IMG/VR virus record: IMGVR_UViG_3300029381_000501
DNA: 64,000 nt
Direction: 5' to 3' (one strand)
DNA from: a virus
The notes beneath the pieces are model-generated. The model was not told the DNA's origin. It did not search any database and was given only the letters and a program-made list of their open reading frames with translations. How positions within the stretch are numbered: position 1 is the stretch's first letter; each line of letters begins with the position of its first letter. The position numbers and the translations under genes are program-made. Below, piece after piece: positions 2,301-41,618 of this stretch.

Positions 2301-3683
2301 CTACATATAATAATCACCCAATCTTATGTTTCTGGTTATTTGTCGTTTGTCAGTGTAAACTTCCTGTATGTTGTGCACTGATGTTTTAGCGATTGCAGAA
2401 ACTTCTTCTTTGTTAGGGTTAATAATAGCCATATTGGTTATTATTGTACGTCTCATAGTGTATGTTGTTACGTTTATATCAGACCACCCCAGATTTGCAC
2501 ATACAGACTTAAAGAATCGGTTTACCTTTTCTCTAGCTTTAGACAAGTCTAACAATCGTTTGTTAATGTCTGTTCTTACGTTAACGTTACAGCTAAACGG
2601 CAACAAATACCCAGATTTGCGAGTTCCTTTGTACTTCTGGATGATTGCCAAAGGTTCTTTGGCTAACCAAACAGGCGTATTTCTGGAGTCTGTATCGTAG
2701 TTCTTTTTCTTTTCTGGACAATAGAACCACGCATAAAGCCCTGTATCGCTATCTAGCTTTATATCTTCTATTCTCATTTGCAGAATATCAACAGGGCGAG
2801 ATGCCAAATAATATTGTAACAGAAGCATATCAATGCAAAGTTGTTTATCCTCATGTTTCATTTTCGGATGAATGAGGTCAACATTAAACGCTTTCAGCTC
2901 GTTAAATTCCTTTTGTGTTAAGGTACGTTTGCCTGTCTTGTCTTTCTTCTTCTGGCATTCTGGAAGGTAAGCAGACAAGCGGAAACCAAACTTAAAGCTA
3001 GGGTTATCGTTTTCTTTCTGCTGATAATGGTAAACTATAGCCCTAAATCGTTTAACGTTGTTCCAATAGTCGTTAGGAAAGTTATCTCTAACAAACTTGC
3101 AGAACTCTTTAAATACTTCATCGTCAACGTTGGCTATAGGCATGTTGGCGAATTTACTAACACCATTTGCCCACGGCATTTTAACGCCCTTTACTGTTCC
3201 CTGTAACTTATGAATAAGTTTATCGTAATTGGTGTAATTACGGCTTCCCTTTTCTCGCATTTTCCCAGACTTCCATAAATCACGGTAATAAATGGCATAT
3301 CCCAGAACCGTTTGAACGCTTGCAGCCTCAACGTTTAAGCTAGCTTTGTAGGCATTAAAGAAATCTTCTGGAGTGTAACACGGTACGGCTTCCAGAACTG
3401 TCTTGAACTGTCTTGCGAGTTCGTCTAACTGTTTGTTGTCTTCTGGAGCGGTAACAACAGACTGTTTCTTAAATGCAGTTAGAAAACGGCTTGTTTCTGC
3501 ATTCCAGAAATACACGTCAGTTTTCAGACGGTAATTTGTACCCCAGAAGAATTTAAGGGCTTTACGCACGGTTTTACTACCTTTATCACCCTTTGCAAAG
3601 TTAGGGTTATAAACGAATACGTTAATACTTTGTGTTGCTTTGTGTACCTTAAAAGATACGTTTTTAATTGTAATTTGTACCAT
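2301..3683 (-). CDS. int: Tyrosine site-specific recombinase (phage integrase)
   Basis: 460 aa; C-terminal catalytic region has box-I Arg ('LASRPVDILQMRIEDIKLD'), 'YTMRRTIITN' (HxxR-like) and 'SVHNIQEVYTD' (His...Tyr nucleophile) in the canonical order. Confidence 0.7.
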   Translation of the reverse strand: MVQITIKNVSFKVHKATQSINVFVYNPNFAKGDKGSKTVRKALKFFWGTNYRLKTDVYFWNAETSRFLTAFKKQSVVTAPEDNKQLDELARQFKTVLEAVPCYTPEDFFNAYKASLNVEAASVQTVLGYAIYYRDLWKSGKMREKGSRNYTNYDKLIHKLQGTVKGVKMPWANGVSKFANMPIANVDDEVFKEFCKFVRDNFPNDYWNNVKRFRAIVYHYQQKENDNPSFKFGFRLSAYLPECQKKKDKTGKRTLTQKEFNELKAFNVDLIHPKMKHEDKQLCIDMLLLQYYLASRPVDILQMRIEDIKLDSDTGLYAWFYCPEKKKNYDTDSRNTPVWLAKEPLAIIQKYKGTRKSGYLLPFSCNVNVRTDINKRLLDLSKAREKVNRFFKSVCANLGWSDINVTTYTMRRTIITNMAIINPNKEEVSAIAKTSVHNIQEVYTDKRQITRNIRLGDYYM

Positions 3684-4124
3684 AAACGATATAATTTTAT
3701 GGTTCTTAAATGAGATAAGCAGAAAAAGGCAAACTAAATGTCAAACTCATAAGTCAAACTTTCAGCGTTTTATTTGCCTTTAATGCAAAAAAATCAGATA
3801 GAACGGAATAAACTATTATAGTTAAATTCTCGTAACTATCTGATTTTCAATCAACTGTATATTAAAGTCTCTATTACAGATAAACTTCAATAATATATTG
3901 GTGTGACTCGCATGGGGTCACAATACATTTTATCTTACAGCCTAACAATCAGCTACTTACTTTCCTAATGCAAAGATAATGATAACTTTTTTATAACACA
4001 AATTTTTAGGTAGTTTTCTTTGATATTTATACGCTTTAAAAATAAGAGAAACGCTATAAGTTGTTCAAAACCAACAAGATACAAGTTTTTTTGCATTCCT
4101 TCTCAGTTAAAGAGTGTATAAAAG

Positions 4125-4623: not shown

Positions 4624-5379
4624 ATGAATAAAAAAAATAATAAACAACCTAGCGTGTACGTACCTACACGCGAAGAGTTTGATGAGTACGTGACTTCCAA
4701 GATGAAGCTTGATGATAAAGATTGGGCGGATGCTATTTGGAATTTAGCCACAAAAGTTGGTTGGAGAAAGAAAAATGGCGAAGCTCCCAATCATTGGCAT
4801 TCTCTAGTTTCCGCATACAATGGTGTGTTACTGGTTAAACTGGGTAGAAAGCCGCATCTGTTAGACAAGAAGGTGAAAATCGTTTCTATGCACGAAAAGA
4901 CCATCATCAATGAGATTGACGATGAATTCCCCGATAATGGTTTGCACTATGTTGCCTATACCGATGGCTCTTGCGACAACTATTCGCAAGCAAAAGCAGG
5001 AGGTGCCGCTTACATCATCCTCAAAGATGGTGAAATCTTAAAGATGAAGAACCATGGGCAGTTAAACACTTCCAACAACAGAATGGAGCTGCTTGCGATA
5101 ATAAGTGCAGTCAACGCTTGCCCAGATGGTGCTTACGTTGATATCTATACTGATAGCCAGTATTGCATTTTGGTTCTCTCTAAATCATACAAGCCCAAGA
5201 AGAATCCCGATTTGTATGAGTTGTTCAAGAAATGCGCAGCTCATGTAGCTGGTATTCGTTTCCACTGGGTGAAAGGTCACAATGGCAACAAGTATAACGA
5301 ATTGGCTGACGAGTTAGCGTATGGTGCATATTGTGATATTTGCGACCAGTACAACATCGAAAAGACTAAGAGACATTGA
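4624..5379 (+). CDS. RNase H (ribonuclease HI)-like protein with ~110-aa N-terminal extension
   Basis: 'YTDGSC...GGAAYII', 'TSNNRMELLAIISAV', 'IYTDSQY', 'WVKGHNGNKYNELADELA' are the conserved RNase HI D-E-D-D block. Confidence 0.7.
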   Translation: MNKKNNKQPSVYVPTREEFDEYVTSKMKLDDKDWADAIWNLATKVGWRKKNGEAPNHWHSLVSAYNGVLLVKLGRKPHLLDKKVKIVSMHEKTIINEIDDEFPDNGLHYVAYTDGSCDNYSQAKAGGAAYIILKDGEILKMKNHGQLNTSNNRMELLAIISAVNACPDGAYVDIYTDSQYCILVLSKSYKPKKNPDLYELFKKCAAHVAGIRFHWVKGHNGNKYNELADELAYGAYCDICDQYNIEKTKRH

Positions 5380-8540: not shown

Positions 8541-8912
8541 TCAGCCTACAAGAGTCTTGCGTTCATCGGCTATCTTGCCGTTGTTCTTCTCCAGGAGTAT
8601 ATCACGAAGCTCCTTGGTGATGCCCTCTTGTACGAGCAGCTTGACCTTGGCTTCTGCCAGCTCCTTCAAGAGTGCTTCATCGGTTGGCTTGTCTTCCTTG
8701 AACATTGAACCTTTGCCGTCCAGTAACCAATCATACGAAACATCCACAAACGTGGATTTTATGTGCATGATAAAATCTAGGGTAGGGTCTTTTGTGCCGT
8801 TGATGTAGTTGTTAACTGTGGTATATTTCATACCTATTTTAGATGCAAAAGCCCTTCCGCTCAGATTGTTATAATTTCTAAGCTCGTTTATTCTATCAAC
8901 TATATCTTTCAT
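8541..8912 (-). CDS. XRE-family HTH transcriptional repressor (CI-like)
   Basis: 'LSGRAFASKIGMKYTTVNNYINGTKDP' is a classic HTH_3 motif; divergently arranged with a small HTH (cro-like) gene. Confidence 0.7.
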   Translation of the reverse strand: MKDIVDRINELRNYNNLSGRAFASKIGMKYTTVNNYINGTKDPTLDFIMHIKSTFVDVSYDWLLDGKGSMFKEDKPTDEALLKELAEAKVKLLVQEGITKELRDILLEKNNGKIADERKTLVG

Positions 8913-8973
8913 ATTGCATTAATGTTTAAATGTTTAAATATTGTTTAAGTAATTATAAATAAATATGCAAATG

Positions 8974-9005
8974 CTTGGATATTTCTACAAGATTGCGTAT
9001 CTTTG
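8974..9005 (+). promoter_or_regulatory. Candidate promoter of cro-like gene: GCTTGG (-33) with 20-nt spacer to TATCTTTG (-7, 8998-9005); inverted repeat ATCTTTGCA (8999-9007) / TGCAAAGAT (9061-9069) spans the switch region
   Basis: Consensus match; shares the 12-mer GCTTGGATATTT with 4124-4135. Confidence 0.4.
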
Positions 9006-9080
9006 CATCCGTGATTCAGACAACGATTCATCGTTTCTTTATCATTTAATGTTTTACGTGTGCAAAGATAATAAAAAAGT

Positions 9081-9290
9081 ATGGATAAAGTGGTATATAA
9101 ACCGAAAATTTTGGTTAGAAAATCAAAAATCGGCAAAATAGCTAAGTCAGTCGGCTGCTGCAATGCGGCAGTTTACGCTGCAATAGCATATAAGACAAAC
9201 AGCAAGTTAGCAGTCGATATTCGAAATGTTACTTGCAATAGGTTTGGTGGTATCCTCGTCAAGAAGTACCCCGAACTTGTGGAAGATTAA
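9081..9290 (+). CDS. Small HTH DNA-binding protein (Cro-like)
   Basis: 69 aa; 'IGKIAKSVGCCNAAVYAAIA' looks like an HTH; divergent from the repressor. Confidence 0.45.
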   Translation: MDKVVYKPKILVRKSKIGKIAKSVGCCNAAVYAAIAYKTNSKLAVDIRNVTCNRFGGILVKKYPELVED

Positions 9291-9927
9291 AGGAAGCCGT
9301 TCGGCTTTTAGATAAAAGTTGTGATTTAACGTTAAGCCCCCATCCTGCGTGAGCAGGGTGGAGGTTGCCAGAAGAAAATCTTATTGATCATATTTTTTAA
9401 TTATTAATACTTTACGGTACTCTCGTTCGTGAGAATAGGAGTATCAATCGGGTTTGAGCCAGTCTGCTCGGTAGTGGAGGGAGACCTTGGGTGTCAGCCA
9501 GCAATTTAGTAGGTTTTCTAGCAAGGGTGTTCAACTCGCCCCAAGCCCACACAAGTTTTTGTGTTTTGTTATTATAAAAATGTGATGTAAGGTGATAAAA
9601 GAGCGGTATATGTCAAGTGGCGGATATTTCATTATTTTCGGGTCGAAACAAGATGCCACGAACCAAAAGGAAATAGCTTTGGCGGCTATTCTACCAACAC
9701 CTTTCATTTTAATGACAATCGCAAAGCTATCCCATTGTCCCTTTGGTGGGCATACGATCATTGACTTATTGGAAAATTAAGCTGAAGGATATTAAGTCTT
9801 TATATAGGGTAAGCGAGGACGAAAGCAAAATAATAACTGATTGCTTGTTAGTATTACAAAAATCCTTCGCAAGCCCGAGCGGTGAGCATGGCTCTCAAAT
9901 TCGTGGTAGCGCACGATGCCGCTATAT

Positions 9928-10037
9928 TGCAGAATAGCTCAGTTGGTTAGAGCAGGCACGTAACATAATGAGTAAACCCTTAACATATTCTTATCAACCG
10001 TGCGACCTGGTCGTGGGTTCGAGTCCCACTTCTGCAA
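9928..10037 (+). tRNA. tRNA-like gene with ~31-nt insertion in the anticodon loop (intron-containing or disrupted tRNA; anticodon not assignable)
   Basis: Acceptor TGCAGAA/TTCTGCA (7 bp); D-arm GCTC-AGTTGGTTA-GAGC; T-arm GTGGG-TTCGAGT-CCCAC (canonical TTCGA); anticodon stem GCACG/CGTGC encloses 38 nt instead of 7. Confidence 0.5.
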
Positions 10038-10187
10038 CTTTTCATATTTATTTAAAATTTAAATTAAAAACAAGCCCCCTGTTGCAGCGGCAACATATTG
10101 GGCGGAATATGAGTTTTTTATCATGTCATGGTTCCTGCCAGTCCGTGAGGATAGGCAGGTTATCTTCAAACTTAAAAACAATAGCGT

Positions 10188-10379
10188 ATGCTTCAATTAT
10201 TCACGACTCGGTCCTATCAAGAGCGAGTGGACGATATATACAAACAGCTCGAAAGGAATCCGTGGTGTCCGCTGGAGATTTTTGAGCTGAAAATCAGAAA
10301 GATTAATATGCTCAACTCACGTATCAAGAATCTCGCAGCAGATATGGGACGTGAAGAGGGCAAGTACAATACACTATAA
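10188..10379 (+). CDS. Hypothetical protein
   Basis: 63-aa ORF preceded by TAGCGTATG. Confidence 0.3.
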   Translation: MLQLFTTRSYQERVDDIYKQLERNPWCPLEIFELKIRKINMLNSRIKNLAADMGREEGKYNTL

Positions 10380-10394
10380 TATATATAATAAGGT

Positions 10395-10907
10395 ATGGTA
10401 TTAAGAAGATACAAGCCCCTGAAAAGGACTCCAATAAAGAAAACTCCTTGGGATAAGCCCAAGAAGGAGCAGGAGAAGAAGAAGGCTAAGGGTATTCCTT
10501 CCAAGCAATCCTTGGTGAAGAAGCTTGATCGAATCTTCCAGTTATACATAAGACTCCGTGACGTAAACAATCAAGGAGCATTCAGATGTATATCTTGTGG
10601 TAAATACAAGCCGTTCAGCCAGATGGATGCCGGTCATTTCATCGGCAGAGCTTCGATGTCGCTACGATATTGCGAGACTAATGTGTTCGGACAATGTCGT
10701 TACTGCAACCGCATGCTGAATGGAAATCTGCTGGACTATCGCAAAGCCTTGGTCAAGAAACTGGGAGAAGACAAGGTGGAATGGCTGGAGAACACTAAGC
10801 ACTCTACCAAGCAATACTCCATTTTTGAACTTCAAACACTCATAGACTACTACACAAAGGAAGTAGAGAAACTTAAAATAGAAAAGAACTATGACGAATG
10901 GAAGTGA
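10395..10907 (+). CDS. ninG: NinG/Rap-like recombination-promoting nuclease
   Basis: 'CISCGK...DAGHFIGR...NVFGQCRYCNRMLNGN' matches the lambda NinG (Rap) Cys/His arrangement. Confidence 0.6.
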   Translation: MVLRRYKPLKRTPIKKTPWDKPKKEQEKKKAKGIPSKQSLVKKLDRIFQLYIRLRDVNNQGAFRCISCGKYKPFSQMDAGHFIGRASMSLRYCETNVFGQCRYCNRMLNGNLLDYRKALVKKLGEDKVEWLENTKHSTKQYSIFELQTLIDYYTKEVEKLKIEKNYDEWK

Positions 10908-11514
10908 AGAGTGGAGGGACATAAAAGGATATGAAGGTATTTATCAAATATCTGATTGTGGTCGTGTAAAGTCTTTGAAAAGGATAGTTCCTTGGGGAAA
11001 AGGAATTAGACATATCAAGGAAAAGTTTCTTAGGGTAAAAAAGAAAAAGAGCGGGTATCTGTTTTATTGTCTTTACCAAAGAGACGGAACAGTGAAATAT
11101 GAACACGCTCACCGTTTGGTTGCACAAGCGTTCATTCCGAATCCATTACACAAAAAAGACGTAAACCATATTGATGGTAACAAGTCGAATAATTGTGTTG
11201 ATAATTTGGAATGGGCAACACGTTCTGAAAATCAGATTCATGCCTATAATATTTTGAAAAGAACTAGAGAACACCCTGTAGGTTGGGTTAATAAGCTTGC
11301 AAAGCATATCGTACAACTAAACTTAGATGGTACTTTTGTAAGAAAATGGGCAAGTTCATGTGATTTTCAAAGACAGACGGGTAAGACAGAGGCAAATGTC
11401 AGGCGTTGTCTGATAGGTAAACAGAAAACGGCTTACGGCTTTAGGTGGATGTATTTAGAAGATTATCAGAAGGAAGTGGATAAGCTTCTTGAAGAGAAAC
11501 ATTTAACAGAATAG
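10891..11514 (+). CDS. HNH homing endonuclease with NUMOD4 N-terminal motif and C-terminal NUMOD/IENR-like HTH
   Basis: 'WRDIKGYEGIYQISDCGRVKS' (NUMOD4), 'HIDGNKSNNCVDNLEWATRSEN' (HNH), and a C-terminal HTH-like region. Confidence 0.7.
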   Translation: MTNGSEEWRDIKGYEGIYQISDCGRVKSLKRIVPWGKGIRHIKEKFLRVKKKKSGYLFYCLYQRDGTVKYEHAHRLVAQAFIPNPLHKKDVNHIDGNKSNNCVDNLEWATRSENQIHAYNILKRTREHPVGWVNKLAKHIVQLNLDGTFVRKWASSCDFQRQTGKTEANVRRCLIGKQKTAYGFRWMYLEDYQKEVDKLLEEKHLTE

Positions 11515-11521
11515 ATTATAT

Positions 11522-12040
11522 ATGAGTAAATTCGGTACAAAGATTAAAGTAGAGTTAGTGACGCATGGTTGTTTCCCGACAAAGGCGTATGAGACGGATG
11601 CCGCTTACGACCTTCATGTAGCAAAGGATATGGAGGTGACTCCTTACGCCCGCTATTACGTTCCGCTCGGGTTCAAGATTCAGCTTCCTGCCAATGTGAA
11701 GATGCTGATCCAGCCACGCAGCGGTATGTCGGGCAAAGGCATGCAGCTTGATGTGTACTTCCCTTCTTGGATGAAGGGCGGTCGATTGGGCAAGGTGAGA
11801 GAGAACCTTGATGTGATTCTCGGCTTGATAGATTGCGGATATGGCGAAGAAGTCCACGTAATCGTGAAGTCGGGCAGGTGGAAATGGAAGAACCGCATTT
11901 TGCGACTCCTCGGCTTCAAGTTCGTTCTCCCTTATAGCTGGCGCATTTGCCAGGGCGCCTTCACCTATGTTCCAGATGTCAACTTGGAACTTGGCAAGGT
12001 AACCGGCACACGAAAAGGGTTAGGTTCAACAGACAGTTAG
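11522..12040 (+). CDS. dut: dUTP diphosphatase (dUTPase) with a ~15-aa insertion before motif 3
   Basis: Motifs 'AAYDL', 'IQPRSG', 'GLIDCGYGEE', 'RICQ', 'TRKGLGSTDS' in canonical order. Confidence 0.7.
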   Translation: MSKFGTKIKVELVTHGCFPTKAYETDAAYDLHVAKDMEVTPYARYYVPLGFKIQLPANVKMLIQPRSGMSGKGMQLDVYFPSWMKGGRLGKVRENLDVILGLIDCGYGEEVHVIVKSGRWKWKNRILRLLGFKFVLPYSWRICQGAFTYVPDVNLELGKVTGTRKGLGSTDS

Positions 12041-12128: not shown

Positions 12129-12437
12129 ATGAGTAGAAAGAATATCAGACAAAATTACTTCAACCAAATCAGAAAGGTTACCGAGGAGGTTGACAAGGCA
12201 GGAGAGCACGGCAAGCATTTCCGCTGCATCATCCTCATGGGCGATGCCAGCACCAAGCAGGGCTTCTCCTTCCTCCACGCCTCAGATGGAGATTTACAGC
12301 AACTCCTTCTTCAAGCTATGCGCAACAGCAATGCGTTCACCTATGCAGCCGCTTGCGCATTCGAAGCTTACGATAAGGAGCTGAGAGAGAAACAAGAACA
12401 GAATAAAGATAAGAAAGATGAAGAAGATAATCATTAA
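12129..12437 (+). CDS. Hypothetical protein (acidic C-terminus); start at internal ATG after the terminator
   Basis: ORF 12045-12437 contains the terminator hairpin, so the ATG at 12129 is more plausible; overlaps the next gene by a few codons. Confidence 0.35.
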   Translation: MSRKNIRQNYFNQIRKVTEEVDKAGEHGKHFRCIILMGDASTKQGFSFLHASDGDLQQLLLQAMRNSNAFTYAAACAFEAYDKELREKQEQNKDKKDEEDNH

Positions 12438-14421
12438 GAAACTGAGACTGCTCAACTTCTGTGGCATCCGTGATGCCGAGTATGAGTTTAGCGAGAAGCT
12501 TACCATCGTGTCGGGTGGCAACGGACGAGGAAAGAGCACGATTGCCAACGCAATCATGTATGTTCTCTTCGGTACGGATATAGCAGGAAATTCGCTCGAC
12601 ATCAAGACCTTCGACAAGAATCACGAGATTGTCAAGGAGATTCCTCACGAAGCTGAACTCACCCTGCTTGTGGATGGCGAGCAGGTTGTATTGAAGCGAA
12701 CACTCACCGATTCTTGGAAGGGCAGCGAGTGCAAGAACACCTACAAGTATTATGTGGATGGCGATGTTGCCACGGCAGGAGACTTCAAGAAGGTAGTAGA
12801 AGGCATTTGTCCTGATTCCGTTTTCCGCCGCATTTCTTCGGCAACGAATTTCTGTAGTCTCCCTTGGCAGAAGCAGCGTGAACTGTTGGAATCACTTGCT
12901 GACCAATATACTACGCTGGATATTACGAAGGGCGATGAACGATTCGATTTCGTGGTAGAAGAACTCAAAAAGAAGTCGATTGCCGACCTCATCCATCATA
13001 TCAAATACAAGCGCAAGGAAGTGCAGAAGCAGTTGGATGCCGTTCCTATCCGCTTGGCAGAACTCGGTAAGTCTCTGCCCGAAGCGCTGGATTGGGATGC
13101 CTTATCTACCGAGAAGTCGAATCTCAACGACAAGCTTGTGGAACTCGCCAACAAGATTCAGGCTATCCGTATTGGCGGTGCCGACAAGGTAAGATACGAT
13201 GGAATCCTAAAGAAGATTGAATTTGCCGAGAAGCGCAAGCACAATATGGAGCAGGGAGCCATGAATCTCGCTACCGAGCAGGCTACCAAACATCAGAGCG
13301 ATGTGATTACTGCCAATATCGCAGTAAAGAAGGCGCAGAGTCTGGTTGATGATCTGAAAGCAACGATGAGGGGCTATACAGAATCGGAGATTCACGCCAA
13401 GGATAAGAAGGAAGAGTGCGAGCGCAAGGTGGTGGACATTAACAACCGGCTTGATGAACTCTCTAAATCCCGATGGAGCTGGAATGCCGAGGATGGCATC
13501 TGTCCTCATTGCGGTCAGCCGCTTCCGGCAGAAGATGTTGAGCGTATCAAGAAGGAATCCAAGGACCGCTTCAATGAACACAAGTCTAACGCATCGAAGA
13601 AGATTCAAGAGGAGTTCAACGGCATTCAGCAGGAATATACCGATGCAAAGAATATCCTTGAGAAGCTTGACAACGACCGAATGGTTACAACCAACCAGCT
13701 GGTGAAGGCTAACAAGACTCTCAAGGAAGCTGAGTTCAAGAAACGGGAGGTGGATGCCGAGAAACCGAAGACCTACGAGCAGATTCTTGCCGAGAAGGAA
13801 GAATATCAGCAGGTAGTGAAGGAGATTGCCGACTTGAAGGCTGAACTTAATGAGCCATCCGTTAATTCGGACGAGAACACAGAAATGATTATAGGATTGG
13901 AGAAGGAGCGTGAGCCTATCGGCACAAGATACAACGAGGTACTGGAACTCCTTGCCACCAAGGAGACCTATGACCGCATTTCCGAACTTATCGAAAAGGC
14001 GAAGCAGGACAAGGAATCATATCAGAATCAGCTGGATGAACTTGATGAGCAACTCGACCTGGCAAACGAGTACAACAAGAAGTCGTGCCAGCTGCTCGAA
14101 GAGAATGTGAATGGACACTTCTCATACGTCAAGTGGTCAATGTTCCGACAGGATCTTGAAGGTAATATGCAGCCATATTGTGAGTGCTATCACGATGGTG
14201 TGCCTTATAGCCGACTCAATGGAGCCGCCAAGGTGAATGCAGGAATCGACATCGCCAACACCTTCTCTAGATTCTATGAGGTATCTGCACCGATGGTGCT
14301 CGATGAATGTGAGAGTGTGAACCACCCAATCTATTCGGGCGACCAGCAGCAGATTCGGTTGACGGTAACCACCGATGATGAGTTGAAGTTTGAATATCCA
14401 TCCCTTGCGGTTATGGAATAA
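12418..14421 (+). CDS. Rad50/SbcC-like SMC-family ATPase with CxxC zinc hook
   Basis: Walker A 'SGGNGRGKST'; long coiled-coil middle; 'CPHCGQPLP' zinc hook at the centre; Walker B/D-loop 'MVLDECESV' at the C-terminus. Confidence 0.65.
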   Translation: MKKIIIKKLRLLNFCGIRDAEYEFSEKLTIVSGGNGRGKSTIANAIMYVLFGTDIAGNSLDIKTFDKNHEIVKEIPHEAELTLLVDGEQVVLKRTLTDSWKGSECKNTYKYYVDGDVATAGDFKKVVEGICPDSVFRRISSATNFCSLPWQKQRELLESLADQYTTLDITKGDERFDFVVEELKKKSIADLIHHIKYKRKEVQKQLDAVPIRLAELGKSLPEALDWDALSTEKSNLNDKLVELANKIQAIRIGGADKVRYDGILKKIEFAEKRKHNMEQGAMNLATEQATKHQSDVITANIAVKKAQSLVDDLKATMRGYTESEIHAKDKKEECERKVVDINNRLDELSKSRWSWNAEDGICPHCGQPLPAEDVERIKKESKDRFNEHKSNASKKIQEEFNGIQQEYTDAKNILEKLDNDRMVTTNQLVKANKTLKEAEFKKREVDAEKPKTYEQILAEKEEYQQVVKEIADLKAELNEPSVNSDENTEMIIGLEKEREPIGTRYNEVLELLATKETYDRISELIEKAKQDKESYQNQLDELDEQLDLANEYNKKSCQLLEENVNGHFSYVKWSMFRQDLEGNMQPYCECYHDGVPYSRLNGAAKVNAGIDIANTFSRFYEVSAPMVLDECESVNHPIYSGDQQQIRLTVTTDDELKFEYPSLAVME

Positions 14422-14696: not shown

Positions 14697-15599
14697 ATGG
14701 CAGAAACAGCAGTAGCAAAGCAGCCTTCACAGAAGGCACTAGCAGTAAAGAACTTCCAGGCGGTAATGAACAATAGTTATTACCAGACCCTTTTGCAGAA
14801 CACCTTGAAGGAGAACAAGGGAACCTTCACCACCAGTTTGATGGAGCTGGCAACATCAGATGAAAAGCTTCTACAGTGCAATCCTAATGCGCTCATGGTA
14901 GAGGCGCTGAAGGCAGCATCCCTGCATCTTCCGCTCAACAAACAGTTGGGGCAGTGCTATATCCTTCCTTTCAAGATTCATGGCGTGATGACTCCTACAC
15001 TGGTAGTGGGAACCAAGGGTTATCTCCAGCTGGCAATGCGTACTGGTAAGTATGAGACCATCAACTCCGATGTGGTATATGAGGGCGAGCTGAGAGGTTA
15101 TGACAAGGTAACCGGTAATCTTGATTTGTCAGGCATTCGTACCTCAAATGTTCCTATCGGCTACTTCGCCTACATAAAGAAGAAGGACGGATTTTTCAAG
15201 ATTCTATATATGTCGCTCGATGAAGTCTGTCTCTATGCCAAGCAGTATAGCCCTACCGTCAAGTTCAACGACAAGGTTACACCGGACACCTTGAAGGAAC
15301 TGGCATTAAAGCAGGCTGCATCGGGAGTAAGTGATGGAGTGGGTTGGAATTCCAACTTCGAGAGTATGGCGCTGAAGACCGTGCTGAGAAGACTCCTCTC
15401 AAAATGGGGCGAGCTTTCCATCGAGAATAACGACATTCTCAACATAGATGAAGCCCCTTCTGCCGAGCAGCAGCGAGACGAGGAGTTTGCCGGGGCAAAG
15501 AAAGTAATCGTGGTTGATCCTGAGACTGGTGGAATCAAGCAGCCAGCTGGCGAGGATCCAGAGGCTCAGACCGAAACCAAGAAGTTTAAGTTGAGCTAG
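14697..15599 (+). CDS. recT: RecT-family single-strand annealing protein
   Basis: 'CNPNALMVEALKAASLHLPL...GQCYILPF...TLVVGTKGYLQLAMRTGKYETINSDVVYEGE' follows the RecT consensus. Confidence 0.65.
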   Translation: MAETAVAKQPSQKALAVKNFQAVMNNSYYQTLLQNTLKENKGTFTTSLMELATSDEKLLQCNPNALMVEALKAASLHLPLNKQLGQCYILPFKIHGVMTPTLVVGTKGYLQLAMRTGKYETINSDVVYEGELRGYDKVTGNLDLSGIRTSNVPIGYFAYIKKKDGFFKILYMSLDEVCLYAKQYSPTVKFNDKVTPDTLKELALKQAASGVSDGVGWNSNFESMALKTVLRRLLSKWGELSIENNDILNIDEAPSAEQQRDEEFAGAKKVIVVDPETGGIKQPAGEDPEAQTETKKFKLS

Positions 15600-25548: not shown

Positions 25549-25971
25549 CTATAGATTTTTATATTCCTCTTTCGCATTAAAACAAGGGCACATCTTCTTC
25601 CACTTCGACTTGTCTGCACCCCAAATATCACGATGCCCCATAATCGCCGCATTCGGATATTTCTTCTTCAGCGTTTTAAGCAGGGTAACCAGTGCATCCT
25701 TCTGCTCCTTGGTTCTGTTATCTACAGCCTTTCCCTTCGAGTCGATACCGCCTACATAGGCAATATTGATGGAAGTAGAATTATATCCCTTCACACCGTT
25801 GCTAACCATTTCTACCGGTAACATCTGATGAATGGCACCATCCTTGGTAATCACATAATGATAGCCGGGGTTCTTCCAGCCCTTGTGCTTGAACTCATCC
25901 CAAAGCTCCTTCACGCCCCATTCCTGAGAAGAGGCAGTACAGTGAACGAAAATTCTCTCAATCAGTCTCAT
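25549..25971 (-). CDS. N-acetylmuramoyl-L-alanine amidase (Amidase_2/PGRP, T7-lysozyme-like) endolysin
   Basis: 'HYVITKDGAIHQ', 'NSTSINIAYVGG', 'IMGHRDIW...KMCPCF' match the zinc-amidase motifs. Confidence 0.75.
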   Translation of the reverse strand: MRLIERIFVHCTASSQEWGVKELWDEFKHKGWKNPGYHYVITKDGAIHQMLPVEMVSNGVKGYNSTSINIAYVGGIDSKGKAVDNRTKEQKDALVTLLKTLKKKYPNAAIMGHRDIWGADKSKWKKMCPCFNAKEEYKNL

Positions 25972-31281: not shown

Positions 31282-33414
31282 TTAAATTTTCGCAGCAGAA
31301 TGAACACCATCACCACCGCTGCTTGATCTTTCCTTTTGTTTCCACTTCGGCTTTTCCATATCGTTGGCACTTACCCACAAGCCGATGGCGGTACTCATCA
31401 GTACATCATCATGGTTTCCGCTGCCCACGATATTGCCAAGACTTCCATCATCGTGCCGCTCGTAGATTCTCAGCTCATGATACATTTCCTTATCAGGCTC
31501 ATCCCAGAGCATATCATCCACGAACTGCTCCAGATTGTCAATCACCCAACCCTTCGTCAGCTTATTGGTCTGGAATCCATACTTGGCAAGCACATCATCG
31601 CTCACGTCCTCAGGACTTGTGGTGCGCTGATACAGATTGTCGTAATAGTCGGCTATCTCGTTCAAGATACTTCCGAAGTGGTCGCCTTCCGTATTGTTGT
31701 TCTTCTCTCTATCTGCCGTGTTGCTCTCGATTACCAGCAAGGCATCATCATAGTAATGAGCCAATGCTGCCGCCATCCACGCCAGCTTGTCGTGCCTTAC
31801 GTGTCCTCGCCATCTTGCCACCACCTTCGGTTTACCCTTGATGGTAGGCAACATCCCGAATCTGTCTATCACCGTCATCACGGTATAGTCGGAAGTCGAG
31901 GATTTACCGCCAATATCCACGCTCACCAAGTATCTATTCTCTACTTTCAGACAGTTAGGTACTGCCCAGATTTTCAAGTCTCCATCACCATCTGTTCGGA
32001 TGCTGATCTTCGACTTTTCGATGGAAGATTCATTCTTGTTACCGTCAATGATGATGTCGGCGGTATAGATTGGCTCACGCTTATACTTCTTCTGCAAATC
32101 ATCAATAGAGTAGGGGTTGAAGACCAGATTACCAGAGTTTCGGAAGGCATCTTCCTCATCCACTGGTGCCTCGGTAGCACAGAAGGAATGGGTGGTAAAC
32201 TTATTGCGGAAGTTTCTGTACCACTCGATAGCTTGGAAGCAGGCTCCCTTCTCCCACATTCTCCAGAAGAACTTGCCAGTTTCTCGGTAGCCCTTCGGAT
32301 TGGTACTCTTATCCTTGTTTTCCAAAAGCCATTTGGCAAAGGCTCGTTCACTCTTCACTTCCTCCATATCGTGCTCGATGAAGAAGCAAGGGATGAATAG
32401 GAAGGAATAGGCATCGTTGTTCTTTGGGTCCATAGCCAACTGGCATTTCTCGTAGAAGAAGCCAGAGTTACCCTTGCCGGTACTCTCGAATACCTCCAAG
32501 TTATCCTCCTGATTTCTGATACCACCCGAGATAGAGGAAATCACACCCTCAGGATCATGCTCTGGGGTCTTCTTCCAATAGGCAACCTCAGAATAGTGGG
32601 CACAGTGGAAGTTGCTACCACGCACGGAATCGAAGTTCTCGAAGGATGCCACGGTCAGCGTACTTCTTCTGATTGCTCTTATTCCGTCTGTCACCTGAAA
32701 ATCATCAGGCGAGTTCTCGTAAGGAGAAAATTGAAGCTTGGCTCCTGGGCATCCGATTGTCCATCCCGGCTGGTTCTCCAAAGCCTTTCTGTACATCGCC
32801 TTGATTTTCTTCGCCGTATTCTTCTGCTGGGCTAGTACGATGGCGTTCCATCCGTCCTTGCGGAAATCCTGTAGCCACTTGATGTAAAGCTGTGTGAGTG
32901 TAGAACCGCCCCACTGTCTGGCTTTCAGAATCACTACTCGGATAGCCCTTTTGCTGGTTCTTAAATCCTCAAAAATCTTCAAGAGCTTGCGCTGGGGATA
33001 GTTCAGCTTGAAAGGTATCATGTCACCAGTTACCTTATCCTCAATCTTGTCGGTAGCAAACAGGGCAAACTCGGGGTCTTCCCTGAATCTCACCTTCATA
33101 ATCTCGAAGGTCAGCACCATCTTCAACTGCTTGGTGTAGTAACTCTTCTCGTTATACTCCTTGCCCCATACTTGGATGATGTACTTCTTCATGCTGCCCA
33201 ACCGTTTCAGACCTATATATAATAAGGTACGCATACATTCTTTGGGAACCCACATCTTCGGAATCATGAAGTCGGGCAGTTCGAGCAGCTCCCTGTGCTC
33301 GAAATCATAGCAGCCTTCACCCGTCCAAGGGTTGTAGGTTCCGTAAATCTCATCGTATCGCCGCTTGTTTTCGGCTACGAGTTCGTCAATATCTACTTCT
33401 CTAACTAATGCCAT
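31282..33414 (-). CDS. terL: Terminase large subunit
   Basis: Walker A-like 'KARQWGGSTL'; Walker B-like 'FHCAHYSEV'; C-terminal RNase H-fold nuclease acids 'VSVDIGGKSS', 'LLVIESN', 'GNHDDVLMS'. Confidence 0.7.
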   Translation of the reverse strand: MALVREVDIDELVAENKRRYDEIYGTYNPWTGEGCYDFEHRELLELPDFMIPKMWVPKECMRTLLYIGLKRLGSMKKYIIQVWGKEYNEKSYYTKQLKMVLTFEIMKVRFREDPEFALFATDKIEDKVTGDMIPFKLNYPQRKLLKIFEDLRTSKRAIRVVILKARQWGGSTLTQLYIKWLQDFRKDGWNAIVLAQQKNTAKKIKAMYRKALENQPGWTIGCPGAKLQFSPYENSPDDFQVTDGIRAIRRSTLTVASFENFDSVRGSNFHCAHYSEVAYWKKTPEHDPEGVISSISGGIRNQEDNLEVFESTGKGNSGFFYEKCQLAMDPKNNDAYSFLFIPCFFIEHDMEEVKSERAFAKWLLENKDKSTNPKGYRETGKFFWRMWEKGACFQAIEWYRNFRNKFTTHSFCATEAPVDEEDAFRNSGNLVFNPYSIDDLQKKYKREPIYTADIIIDGNKNESSIEKSKISIRTDGDGDLKIWAVPNCLKVENRYLVSVDIGGKSSTSDYTVMTVIDRFGMLPTIKGKPKVVARWRGHVRHDKLAWMAAALAHYYDDALLVIESNTADREKNNNTEGDHFGSILNEIADYYDNLYQRTTSPEDVSDDVLAKYGFQTNKLTKGWVIDNLEQFVDDMLWDEPDKEMYHELRIYERHDDGSLGNIVGSGNHDDVLMSTAIGLWVSANDMEKPKWKQKERSSSGGDGVHSAAKI

Positions 33415-37905: not shown

Positions 37906-38703
37906 ATGACAAAGGAAGAATTAGAACAGATGAATGCAGGTGGAGAATCTGAACAGCAGGTTTCTTCACCCGAACAGGCTGCGGAAGAGACTCCCCCGGT
38001 AGAGGAGCGCCCTAACCGCAAGGCTTTCTCCGACCGATTCAAGAAGCGTCATGCTGACATTGATTTCGAGGACAAGGAAGCTCGTTATGCGGCTATGAAT
38101 GATGATGCTGATTTGCTCGGACGATACGAGGAAAGCGGTAAGGCGTTGTCTAAGGTGTTCGATAAACACAAGTGGCTTGCTGCTCTGGCGATGGACATGG
38201 AAAAGAATCCGGATGATAATCCGTTTGATGCGATGGCTCGCTTGGGTATTGACGTGAAGACCTTGCTTGATGATCCCGAAGGCGGCAAGAAACTTGCTGA
38301 GATTCTCGCCAAGCACAACGAGGACGTGGCTGAACAGAATGAAGCAACCGAAAGGGTTACGGAAAACATGCGCAAGTCTATCGAGCGCTTGGTTAAGCTC
38401 TACCCAGACGATGCACACGATATGTGGAAGCAGATTTACGAGATTCACGACAAGGTGGAGAGCGGTGACATCCCAGATGATGTTTGGAAGATGCTCCATA
38501 ATGCCAACAACTACGATTCTGACATTTCCTCTGCCCGAGACGAGGCGGCTATGCAGGCAAGAAACGAGAAGATTCAGAATAAGGTCCGCTCTTCTGCAAC
38601 AGAGGGTATTCCTCCTTCACTTTCTAGTTCGGGTGCCGGAAACGAGCCAGCTAAGAAGAAAACTAAGAAGAGAGCATCCAGCTTCTTTGATGATATTGGT
38701 TAA
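37906..38703 (+). CDS. Scaffolding protein candidate
   Basis: 265 aa, highly acidic/helical, directly upstream of the capsid gene. Confidence 0.45.
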   Translation: MTKEELEQMNAGGESEQQVSSPEQAAEETPPVEERPNRKAFSDRFKKRHADIDFEDKEARYAAMNDDADLLGRYEESGKALSKVFDKHKWLAALAMDMEKNPDDNPFDAMARLGIDVKTLLDDPEGGKKLAEILAKHNEDVAEQNEATERVTENMRKSIERLVKLYPDDAHDMWKQIYEIHDKVESGDIPDDVWKMLHNANNYDSDISSARDEAAMQARNEKIQNKVRSSATEGIPPSLSSSGAGNEPAKKKTKKRASSFFDDIG

Positions 38704-38737
38704 CACAAGATTATTAATCCATAAATATAAGTATAAA

Positions 38738-40423
38738 ATGAAGAAAGTAATTAATTATTTTTCTAATCGTCAGTTCATCTTTAAGATGATTCTGATGCTT
38801 CTTGCTGTTGTTACAGGTGGTGGCGCAATGGCTGTTGGTGATGATGTTGAACCAGACTTGAACGAGCCAGGTTCTAAGCCTGCAACAACCGAAGAGACAG
38901 CTGCCAATGAGCAGGTAGATAAGGATAAGAACGACTTGCTTGCCCCTGGCGGTAAAACTGCTGGTCAGTCTTTGACTGGTACGCAGGCTTCTGCTACACA
39001 GATGGACCGAGGCGGTCTTGAAGAGGAAGACTGGGACACGGGTGAAACCAAGTTCCGCCCATATCATACACCTCTCCTTTCTATTGTTAAGAAGTTTACA
39101 ACTACAGTTCCTTGTACTGGCTACAAGAAGAAGCACGCTCGTTATGGTGGCGAGACCTTGGACGGTGAGGTTACACAGCCAATTACTGCCGGTGCTTCCA
39201 TCAAGCTTACCAAGACCAACTTCTCAGGCTCTTTGAAGCCATTCTACGAGGGTTCTACTGCTATCGTTCCTACCGTAGCTGGTTATAAGCGTGGCTCTAC
39301 TACAGTTCGTGAGGGTCGTTTGGTTCTCTTTGTTACCAGCGCCAATAAGTCAGGTACTGAGGTTACATTGCAGGCTATCAATGGTAAGGCTAATGAGGAG
39401 AATGCCGATTGCGAGTTCTTGGAAAACATGACTTGCCCGGATATTCCTGTTGGTACAGTTATTTTGGCAGCTTCTACAGCGCTCTCTGAGTCTCAGATGA
39501 AGGTTCCTGCTGAGAACTATCAGCCACGTTCTGCCGATGTTTATCTCCAGAAGCGAGCGTTCTCTATCGTCTTCACCGAGGACTTCGAGACCATGAAGAA
39601 GAAGATTCCTCATACCGTGAAGGATATGAAGGAAGATGCACTCAACAAGTACAAGATGCGTGCTGAGCGTTCTTACTGGATGGGTACCAAGGCTCGTATT
39701 CATTCTACCACCAATGATGGTGCTGATGAGTACACCTACTTCGCAGATGGTATCTTGAATCAGCTGACCAACCAGTATGGTATCGGTGAGGTTTACAAGT
39801 ACGAGGATCTGACAGCTATCAGCATGTTGATGTTTACTGACTTCTCTGAGTCTGACCACATCTACATGTTCTGTGGCAAGAATGCCATCAAGCGCCTGAT
39901 GAACATTGAAATCCCTAAGGGTCGCACCGAAGTTCTTTCTACCCACAAGGAAATTGACATTACCTTCTCTCGCTACGTTGACAACTACGGTACTATTGAT
40001 TTCGTTTGGGATCAGACTCTTGACATGATGCACATGGAAGACTGCATGGTTGGTATGGACTTGAAGGGTGCTCGCCACTACGTGAAGGAGAAGGGCAAGG
40101 ATAAGACCAATGATATGAGCAAGGATGGCTACGACCCACGTGAGGCTAAGCGATACATGCACATTGAGGCAGATTGTATTGCTCTTCGTGGCTACAACTC
40201 TATCCTGGTTGGTCCAGAAGCATTCATCACCAACCTTGGTGTTACTGGCATCGTGAACAGCATTATATCTCTGAAGACTCTCCCAGATACTGCTTCCAAG
40301 GGCATGAAGGTGGCTTTGACAGAGGATTACACCAAGGATGAGACAACCTACGAGAAGGGCAAGGTTTACGAGTACGATGGTACTAAGTGGAACTTGTATG
40401 CCGGCATGGACGTTGCTGCATAA
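38738..40423 (+). CDS. Major capsid protein candidate
   Basis: 561 aa starting at ATG 38738 (the ORF track extends it upstream in frame across the scaffold gene); follows the scaffold; strong terminator-like hairpin downstream. Confidence 0.5.
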   Translation: MKKVINYFSNRQFIFKMILMLLAVVTGGGAMAVGDDVEPDLNEPGSKPATTEETAANEQVDKDKNDLLAPGGKTAGQSLTGTQASATQMDRGGLEEEDWDTGETKFRPYHTPLLSIVKKFTTTVPCTGYKKKHARYGGETLDGEVTQPITAGASIKLTKTNFSGSLKPFYEGSTAIVPTVAGYKRGSTTVREGRLVLFVTSANKSGTEVTLQAINGKANEENADCEFLENMTCPDIPVGTVILAASTALSESQMKVPAENYQPRSADVYLQKRAFSIVFTEDFETMKKKIPHTVKDMKEDALNKYKMRAERSYWMGTKARIHSTTNDGADEYTYFADGILNQLTNQYGIGEVYKYEDLTAISMLMFTDFSESDHIYMFCGKNAIKRLMNIEIPKGRTEVLSTHKEIDITFSRYVDNYGTIDFVWDQTLDMMHMEDCMVGMDLKGARHYVKEKGKDKTNDMSKDGYDPREAKRYMHIEADCIALRGYNSILVGPEAFITNLGVTGIVNSIISLKTLPDTASKGMKVALTEDYTKDETTYEKGKVYEYDGTKWNLYAGMDVAA

Positions 40424-40961: not shown

Positions 40962-41618
40962 ATGAAGGTAGAAGACATCATAAAGGCAGTCCGTTGGTGC
41001 ATAGACGAGGAATCCAACAACTTCTCATCAATCACAGATGAGAAGGATGATTTGTATATGGACAACATCATCAAGGCAAAAATCAACGATGCCCTGCATT
41101 GGATTGCCGTTACCGCATCATCCTCTGCAGCATTGGCTGATTCCAAGAAGATAGGTACTTCTTCTGCCACCCTCCAAGTACAGGACTACGATACCCAGAG
41201 AAGCATCGGAGTAGTCACGATGGATGCCAATACCGAGGTAATCAATATCTCTCGCATTCGTGGCAATGGCTGGTTCAAGGCAGTAGTGCCTATAGAAGAT
41301 ACTCAAGATGAGGCTGTCATGATGTTTGATGATACGGCAAAGGGAACTATCGACCGACCACAGGCGGCTATTATGCGTGAGAATCCTCTGAAAATCCTCT
41401 TGCAGCCCAAGCCTACGGAAGCGGTCATTTCCTTTGTGGGTGTTCCGAAGAACGTAAGCACGTCCGATTCTACAGATGTAGCTATCCCGGACCGCTTGAA
41501 GAATGCCTTCATCTACTATCTCGCCTTTTTATTGCTTTCAGCCTACGATGATACCAAGGCTACGCAAATGTACACGATAGCCTTGCAGCAGCTAGGCGTT
41601 AGTCAAACATCAAAATAA
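40962..41618 (+). CDS. Hypothetical virion protein
   Basis: 218-aa ORF. Confidence 0.35.
   Translation: MKVEDIIKAVRWCIDEESNNFSSITDEKDDLYMDNIIKAKINDALHWIAVTASSSAALADSKKIGTSSATLQVQDYDTQRSIGVVTMDANTEVINISRIRGNGWFKAVVPIEDTQDEAVMMFDDTAKGTIDRPQAAIMRENPLKILLQPKPTEAVISFVGVPKNVSTSDSTDVAIPDRLKNAFIYYLAFLLLSAYDDTKATQMYTIALQQLGVSQTSK

Follow-up and report, generated by a model that had tools for sequence, protein, structure and literature searches.

A tRNA-shaped RNA gene of human-gut phages carries a conserved 38-nucleotide loop in place of the anticodon loop and may serve as a natural scaffold

The window analysed here is the whole 64,000-nucleotide stretch of viral DNA filed in IMG/VR as IMGVR_UViG_3300029381_000501, which, judged from its sequence, belongs to a temperate, podovirus-like human-gut phage of Bacteroides type. 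A protein scan places a helix-turn-helix (HTH) regulator of repressor type at 8541-8912 on the minus strand, from which a small rightward gene (9081-9290) diverges. Directly 3' of this divergent pair and 5' of nin-type genes (NinG, 10395-10907), in the same orientation as the latter, lies a stretch of about 900 nt (9290-10190) without convincing open reading frames (ORFs). Within it, at 9928-10037 on the plus strand, we find a gene with the outline of a tRNA, in which the stem that would normally carry the anticodon loop encloses 38 nt. This insert is the best-conserved part of the gene, which is therefore most likely a non-decoding RNA using the tRNA shape as a carrier and not an intron-bearing tRNA.

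The Rfam tRNA model RF00005 matches exactly 9928-10037 with 47 bits (gathering threshold 29, E = 6.8e-07), with 51 nt in place of the 15 that the model would have, and this is the only Rfam match in the window; our own covariance model, R1, scores the same interval at 126 bits. The tRNA-like parts named in a preliminary description of this DNA, made from the letters alone, are all present. The gene, which runs from acceptor position 1 to the discriminator A, has a 7-bp acceptor stem, whose 5' strand TGCAGAA (9928-9934) pairs with TTCTGCA at 10030-10036, the discriminator following at 10037. The D arm is GCTC-AGTTGGTTA-GAGC (9937-9953) and the T arm GTGGG-TTCGAGT-CCCAC (10013-10029). Between them, in the place of the anticodon stem, a closing stem of GCACG (9956-9960) and CGTGC (9999-10003) encloses the 38-nt loop (9961-9998), which is conserved in sequence and predicted to be unpaired. 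Alignments delimit two conserved blocks within this loop: block A at 9970-9983, here GAGTAAACCCTTAA with the family consensus GUGUAAAUCCUUAA, and block B at 9988-9997, here TTCTTATCAA with the consensus (A)UUCUUAUCAAA. The direct repeat that had been pointed out in the loop, TAACATA at 9961-9967 and TTAACATA at 9980-9987, is there as described, though it is confined to the lineage of the window and relatives lack it. The variable region GACCTGGTC (10004-10012) has a non-canonical length of 9 nt and varies between 3 and 9 nt in relatives.

Exact-word and motif scans recovered a family of 174 loci with 90 distinct sequences, on contigs of about 65-80 kb from human-gut viromes and metagenomes that belong to one phage group. 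The element always occupies one syntenic position, and synteny with related phage contigs extends to either side of it, which places the gene inside the phage genome and not at an integration junction. In order to assess the helices across this diversity, a covariance model was built from eight canonical members and used with Infernal to align 25 diverse copies, since MAFFT had put the stems of diverged lineages out of register. The four helices of the cloverleaf are paired in 95.9% of cells, compared with 71.5% in shuffled controls and 28-45% with slid partners, and 18 of the 21 pairs have changed on both sides; none of 500 shuffles reaches the observed value on any of five measures.

Every helix contributes to this signal. 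All seven acceptor pairs have changed on both sides (e.g., CCTCGCA/TGCGAGG, CGCAACA/TGTTGCG and TCCCGAG/CTCGGGA), with the 5' strand reading TGCAGAA, CCTCGCA, CGCAACA, TCCCGAG, CCTCGTA, CTTTGCA or CCACCGA in different lineages. The D stem is 99% paired and shows compensation at two of its four pairs (GCTC/GAGC versus GTGT/GCAC), and the T stem has changed on both sides at all five (GTGGG/CCCAC, GTTGG/CCAAC, GTAGG/CCTAC and GGCAG/CTGTC). For the closing stem, which is 99.2% paired, four of five pairs have changed on both sides among variants that include GCACG/CGTGC, CCCG/CGGG, TCCGTG/CACGGA, TTCCGTG/CACGGAA and CCTGG/CCAGG. Comparison of GCACG/CGTGC with CCCGA/TCGGG on its own yields one true compensatory pair, the other apparent ones being mostly a register shift of one column, and compensation beyond that single pair is supplied by other lineages. 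The elbow nucleotides are likewise kept, with the D-loop GG present in all lineages together with C56 and A58 of the T loop. In the aligned copies the cloverleaf is shown to be maintained by compensatory evolution, with purifying selection on a predicted structure compatible with the L-shape, and the case for 9928-10037 being a real RNA under selection is well supported.

The conservation of the insert is of a different kind. Twenty of its 42 alignment columns are invariant, as opposed to 0 of 14 in the acceptor stem, 0 of 10 in the T stem and 0 of 9 in the variable region. The invariant positions form the blocks GUGUAAAUCCUUAA and UUCUUAUCAAA, and RNAalifold predicts no pairs inside the insert. 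The family consensus can be written as closing stem, (U)AAC, 3-12 variable nucleotides, GUGUAAAUCCUUAA, 3-7 variable nucleotides, (A)UUCUUAUCAAA and closing stem, from which the copy in the window departs slightly (GAGUAAACCCUUAA ... UUCUUAUCAAC). The loop is conserved, the gene has a fixed place within the phage genome, and a structured leader always precedes it. A naturally broken copy was also seen: in the contig designated L176 (around 9385-9554; L numbers denote contigs throughout) the T arm is replaced after AGATAGGT by unrelated sequence, through insertion or rearrangement.

The leader occupies 46 nt at 9878-9923 on the plus strand and is predicted from covariation to form a three-way junction. 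Its helices are P1, (A)GCGGU/GCCGC(U); P2, GAGC-AUG-GCUC; and P3, CGUG-GUAGCG-CACG, with a joining segment J that reads UCAAAUU here and UUAAAUU in the family. It is found in every lineage, ending 5-11 nt 5' of the tRNA-shaped unit, and is 95.5% paired compared with 84.2% in shuffled alignments; 7 of its 14 pairs have changed on both sides and none of 500 shuffles is as good. The covariation comes from P1 and P3, while P2 and the joining sequence UUAAAUU are invariant. In L042 and L043 the same leader stands before a tRNA-like element of 74 nt, whose 'anticodon' loop has 3-4 nt and which lacks the conserved insert. Between this element and the third of the hairpins described below, L043 also has a stretch (2668-2778) with sub-threshold similarity to the Bacteroides small RNA families GibS (40 bits, gathering 115) and FopS (34 bits, gathering 56), which fits a Bacteroidales host and is no evidence of homology.

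The preliminary description had suggested that the region at 9.3-9.9 kb may hold further RNA elements, and this is borne out by the leader together with a second tRNA-shaped element, a set of hairpins and an optional module. The second tRNA-shaped element (9450-9549, plus strand) recurs in relatives of the V1 type, and RNAalifold folds it as a cloverleaf with a 7-bp acceptor stem GGGTTTG/CAAGCCC, a D-like hairpin, a 9-bp long arm with a branched loop and a T arm GGGTG-TTCAACT-CGCCC; the covariation signal is weak here, as the relatives at hand are all close ones. Other lineages have a canonical-looking tRNA-like gene of 74-76 nt in its place, whose loop differs between close relatives. These counterparts lie at 5498-5572 in L009, 1236-1311 in L010, 8275-8350 in L011 and 2056-2129 in L027, and their loops, AAGGAGGU, AAGGAGGUU, AAGGAUGCU or ACAACAAAGGU, are Shine-Dalgarno-like, 7-9 nt or more in length and without U33; ARAGORN reads them as Leu(gag), Leu(caa) or with 4-nt anticodons. 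Pairing of such a loop with block A (AAGGAU-AUCCUU) was considered and rejected, as it extends over 4-6 nt only and is inconsistent between lineages.

Three hairpins on the plus strand share a single motif with a GUGA loop, stem-NG-UYC-GUGA-GRA-UA-stem. The first, CCATCCTGC-GTGA-GCAGGGTGG (9340-9361), has a tetraloop of the GNRA type and is conserved between lineages about 70% identical; the second (9419-9442) stands 7 nt upstream of the 9450-9549 element, and the third, CCTGCC-AG-TCC-GTGA-GGA-TA-GGCAGG (10134-10159), upstream of an ORF at 10188-10379. In a further structured module at 9589-9704 (plus strand), GGUG/CACC forms the outer helix, and three pairs of a 3' hairpin are compensatory. 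The segment of about 131 nt that contains it (9580-9710) is precisely absent from L004, L005, L007 and L008 and present as far as V3, so the RNA locus appears to be built from separable modules. About 45 nt downstream of the tRNA-shaped gene, inspection by eye identifies one more small hairpin, GTTGC-AGCG-GCAAC (10081-10094, plus strand), whose stem varies with pairing kept (GCTGC/GCAGC, GTGC/GCAC).

A related arrangement occurs in a cultured phage. BF1-TP2 (L247, PQ571263.1) has a GUGA hairpin followed by a tRNA-shaped gene of 116 nt (3829-3944) in which about 56 nt replace the anticodon arm, and a coding sequence annotated as 'hypothetical protein' (gp8, 3787-3951) overlies it. In L248 a second tRNA-like element, of 84 nt (25662-25745), lies between the repressor gene and the early genes. 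Both gp8 and the 84-nt element are probably mis-annotated or unannotated RNAs.

In order to rationalise a cloverleaf that is maintained around an unpaired, conserved loop, we propose that 9928-10037 is, on balance, probably a stable non-decoding RNA that uses a tRNA scaffold to display a functional loop for a partner. The RNA would be transcribed with the early rightward operon, just 3' of the switch formed by the repressor and the first rightward gene. Its acceptor, D and T arms would fold to the usual L-shape, with the 38-nt single-stranded loop in place of the anticodon loop, and this shape would make it a substrate for host RNase P at the 5' end and for RNase Z or CCA addition at the 3' end. 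The features of an RNase P substrate are present, namely a 7-bp acceptor stem with a T arm and a suitable context at position -1 and the discriminator. Position -1 is a pyrimidine in all 25 copies (U in 22) and the discriminator is A in 24; no CCA is encoded after it, and C follows at +74 in 25 of 25. This context is consistent with end processing of the tRNA type, which would free the leader and leave a nuclease-resistant RNA of about 110 nt, whose displayed loop with the blocks GUGUAAAUCCUUAA and UUCUUAUCAAA would be the working part. The loop would bind a partner that is not encoded in these 64 kb, for which an RNA or protein of the host is the most likely candidate. As a putative lead, the sequence CUUAUCA could pair with U33-G39 in the anticodon loop of a standard tRNA-Ile(GAU). 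A fuller version, which we put forward as no more than a tentative possibility, is that gut Bacteroidales phages have evolved a family of natural 'tRNA scaffolds' that hijack host tRNA maturation and stability to display a conserved 40-nt effector loop. The host factor that such a loop might block or titrate could be an RNA, an RNA-binding protein or a defence nuclease that targets tRNAs, for example, and the scaffold might be co-produced with the three-way-junction leader in an early locus of several RNAs.

Three observations weigh against the scaffold reading. The search for an antisense target covered the 64-kb window, with about 11 kb of the phage lying outside it, and gave no target: the best duplexes formed by the loop in the window, at -21 to -23 kcal/mol, fall within the range of shuffled loops (-21 to -26), and block B has no complementary site elsewhere in the window. 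No site in the 64 kb surpasses shuffled loops, and the target is more likely to be an RNA or a protein of the host. Furthermore, a 'perfect tRNA' shape is not strictly required, since V3, the lineage found most often, departs from it through a U55-to-C change, two mismatches in the acceptor stem and a weakened T stem. Finally, the Infernal alignment is fitted to the structure, and the 95.9% of paired cells is somewhat inflated as a result; the conclusion of covariation is robust to this, given the controls with slid partners and the variety of base pairs observed.

An alternative that we judge unlikely, and that nevertheless accounts for part of the locus, is a role in cis. Here the tRNA shapes would serve as RNase P/RNase Z 'punctuation', the hairpins as nut- or put-like signals and the loop would be conserved for a local reason, the elements together processing or antiterminating the early rightward transcript and freeing the leader RNA and the downstream mRNA (the ORF at 10188-10379 and NinG onward). 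The cluster does lie between the HTH repressor-type gene with its small rightward neighbour and the nin-like genes, in the same orientation, and nutR/tR1 of lambdoid phages occupy the corresponding position. The recurrence of three GUGA hairpins of one motif would also fit such signals, as would the leader standing before a tRNA-like element that lacks the loop in L042 and L043. However, punctuation leaves unexplained 20 invariant loop positions across lineages whose NinG proteins are 55-61% identical, and the plus strand in the vicinity of the element showed no terminator-like site.

More doubtful still is an anti-defence decoy, a tRNA mimic that would engage a host tRNA-targeting nuclease or a tRNA-binding sensor and block or titrate it through the oversized loop. 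The tRNA shape and elbow are kept while decoding features are lost, and the phage has two such tRNA-shaped RNAs, of which the upstream one differs in its interior among close relatives, as would fit an arms race. Phage tRNAs are known that escape anticodon nucleases and PARIS through an altered anticodon loop, and retrons are a further setting in which anticodon-loop changes matter in host conflict (PMC10264068, PMC11464382, PMC11555353). Those known examples, however, are functional decoding tRNAs with 7-nt loops, not loop-expanded mimics, and 9928-10037 cannot decode. In addition, the loop is strongly conserved and not fast-evolving.

A genuine tRNA gene with a short spliced intron was the first of the options in the preliminary description, and we consider it very improbable. 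An intron would be expected to evolve faster than its exons and to leave, once excised, an anticodon loop of 7 nt in which position 33 is U and position 37 a purine; alleles that lack the intron often exist as well. Here conservation is higher in the insert than in the exons, and no insert-less allele was found: every viral-contig match retrieved through either half of the tRNA carries the insert, so the intact homologous tRNA that would have marked this copy as a decayed fragment was not found among those matches. In default mode, without introns, ARAGORN finds no tRNA or tmRNA in the window. With introns enabled, as the preliminary description had advised, it does call the gene, but the modes disagree between selenocysteine (SeC(tca), with a 31-nt intron) and Cys(aca), and neither call has U33. 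Brute-force removal of any single segment gives one splice solution common to V1 and V2 (e.g., excision of about 33 nt at 37/38, leaving the loop GUAACAC of a Val-AAC), and it is non-canonical, requiring G32, a 27/43 mismatch and a variable loop of 7-8 nt. No canonical splice is shared by all lineages. The six positions that follow the closing stem vary by lineage (UAACAU, AACUGU, AAGGAA, UAAAUG and others), so that the implied anticodon varies too, and with all seven acceptor pairs variable the identity elements are not conserved either; U33 is absent in most lineages, no loop reading gives U33 with a clean stem, and the 7-nt loop with U33 and purine 37 is not found. Close relatives also differ by 1-nt indels beside the 3' strand of the closing stem (CAAC, CAAAC, CAACC).

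The insert has no bulge-helix-bulge (BHB) geometry, its 38 nt are far below the size of a group I intron, no Rfam intron or ribozyme family matches in 8900-10450 even at E <= 5, and no ligase or splicing endonuclease occurs among about 45 phage proteins scanned, a subset of the ORFs. By inspection, a 3-nt bulge (CGA) with a 4-bp helix CACG/CGUG can be drawn, with a 4x4 internal loop on the opposite side; this BHB reading was rejected because the inner helix is missing, and the arrangement is also not conserved in other lineages. A hammerhead-like reading of AUAAUGAG...GUAAAC was discarded as well, having no stem II, no conservation of sequence and no Rfam match. An ORF through the gene (9968-10285, 105 aa) was set aside because 1-nt indels break its frame in close relatives.

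In favour of introns of this size in general, unrelated phage tRNAs exist that have a canonical CUUAUA/G loop start followed by an insert of about 39-42 nt, so short insertions are not unique to this family. In our scans, phage tRNA genes whose anticodon region is enlarged by an insert of about 15-58 nt were seen in L017 (10297-10409; the same in L021 and L022), L018 (351-466), L014 (2688-2801) and L019 (4641-4755). Those of L017 and L018 start with the canonical CUUAUA/G (U33, UAU, purine 37) before some 39-42 nt of insert, and would be better candidates for true short introns than 9928-10037. Other unrelated large phages have a tRNA-Ile(UAU) of 93-97 nt with the loop CUUAUAC (L013, 2708-2800; L015, 10656-10749; L020, 1456-1552; also L016, L023 and L024). 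The long variable arm of these resembles a second anticodon stem-loop, that of tRNA-Ile(GAU) (GCGC-CUGAUAA-GCGC), and could be an identity mimic for IleRS.

The remaining options that had been raised, namely a pseudo-tRNA in decay or what is left of an attP/att site of the tyrosine integrase, are scarcely credible. The integrase is present (2301-3683, minus strand, protein scan) and L012 does carry a D-stem mismatch, but decay would not accumulate compensatory changes, which are seen in all four helices, the integrase is some 6 kb away, phage genes are syntenic on both sides of the element in many contigs, and no second copy or repeated part of 9928-10037 occurs within the window. The 3' 21-mer GGTTCGAGTCCCACTTCTGCA, looked for in response to the suggested comparison with host tRNA genes and attB, has 0 matches in one genome each of 185,579 species, and no cellular tRNA donor was found. 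Among the interpretations first offered for this gene, it is therefore the non-canonical structure that our analysis supports, and not the small intron, the disrupted pseudo-tRNA or the att remnant.

By its sequence the element belongs with the tRNA-like non-coding RNAs, as a variant; it lacks the defining features of a decoding tRNA, of a tRNA with a group I or BHB intron, of tmRNA, of an att site and of GOLLD or ROOL. Our literature searches found no description of it, and within 8900-10450 the tRNA model is the only Rfam family to match, even when the cut-off is relaxed to E <= 5. As a working analogy, the closest likeness is the engineered 'tRNA scaffold' of Ponchon and Dardel, in which the acceptor, D and T arms are kept, the anticodon stem carries a foreign RNA, and the design depends on cellular tRNA processing and confers nuclease resistance; tRNA scaffolds with cargo RNA in place of the anticodon stem-loop are processed and stabilised in bacteria (PMC3753655). 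Unlike that laboratory construct with its folded insert, the phage element is natural and maintained, its conserved loop is predicted to be unstructured, and its processing is inferred. Looser likenesses can be drawn to C4 of P1, CI of P4, the topology of tmRNA and RNAs C and D of T4. The CI RNA of P4 is a phage regulatory RNA matured by RNase P. Maturation by RNase P is also attributed to phage regulatory RNAs such as P1/P7 C4 in PMC4919922, through its reference 206. C4 and CI resemble the present element as small phage RNAs near the immunity region whose precursors mimic a tRNA sufficiently for RNase P and whose short exposed segments do the work; in contrast to it, they pair with complementary sites in transcripts of their own phage, whereas no such site for the present loop was found in the 64 kb, and they do not form a full cloverleaf.

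The likeness to tmRNA lies in a tRNA-like body with a functional insert replacing the anticodon region. However, tmRNA measures 260-400 nt as against 110 nt here and has pseudoknots, a tag ORF and G3:U70, none of which 9928-10037 possesses, while it does have a full D arm. Pair 3:70 is CG in 12 of the 25 copies, AU in 7, UA in 5 and GU in 1, and neither ARAGORN nor Rfam RF00023 reports a tmRNA. The stable RNAs C and D of T4 (species 1 and 2) are about 120-140 nt long, are co-transcribed and processed with tRNAs and have tRNA-like ends. They are comparable as phage-encoded stable RNAs with such ends but lie among genuine tRNA genes, whereas by ARAGORN in default mode the window has none. GOLLD and ROOL, too, are phage-borne structured non-coding RNAs tied to tRNA-type elements and often found beside tRNA genes. 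Each is a single RNA of 500-800 nt, in contrast to the string of small modules, one of them optional, seen here, and their models (RF01998, RF03087) give no match at the gathering threshold or at E <= 5.

The remainder of the window places the element in its phage group. The protein scan also identified RNase H (4624-5379), and downstream of NinG lie genes for an HNH endonuclease (10891-11514), dUTPase (11522-12040), an SbcC-like protein (12418-14421) and RecT (14697-15599), followed by the terminase (31282-33414, minus strand) and an SU10-type capsid and adaptor (38267-40423 and 40962-41618). The segment 10491-11464, in the region of the HNH gene, is absent from L002, L003, L004, L007 and L008, which are otherwise collinear and have about 360 nt in its stead, as is typical of a mobile homing-endonuclease gene. 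At the right-hand end, a giant polyvalent protein (52260-63998, minus strand) of more than 3912 aa, typical of these phages, continues past the end of the window; its counterpart in BF1-TP2 is gp68 (10.9 kb), and the gene adjoining it encodes an LPD38 domain. By terminase (35-39% identity) the closest cultured phages are the temperate Bacteroides phages BF1-TP2, BS-TP4 and BKO1-TP3, and the host of the phage is therefore probably in the Bacteroidales. A search of genome collections with NinG gave as its sole match one gut metagenome-assembled genome (L057, CAAGQJ010000014.1, 'Bacilli bacterium' HGM10836). This contig is probably mis-binned phage DNA, the cultured relatives infecting Bacteroides. 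A blastn search of 9300-10200 against annotated phages returned no match.

The finding cautions that 'tRNA genes with introns' called in phages can be something else entirely. If the scaffold reading is true, the family would be the natural form of a design at which RNA engineers arrived independently, and a widespread phage group of the human gut would harbour an abundant small RNA of a new class. Since the RNA is compact, covaries strongly and has a defined conserved loop, and since Bacteroides fragilis provides a system with a cultured relative, the roles that phage tRNA-like RNAs may have beyond decoding become directly testable.

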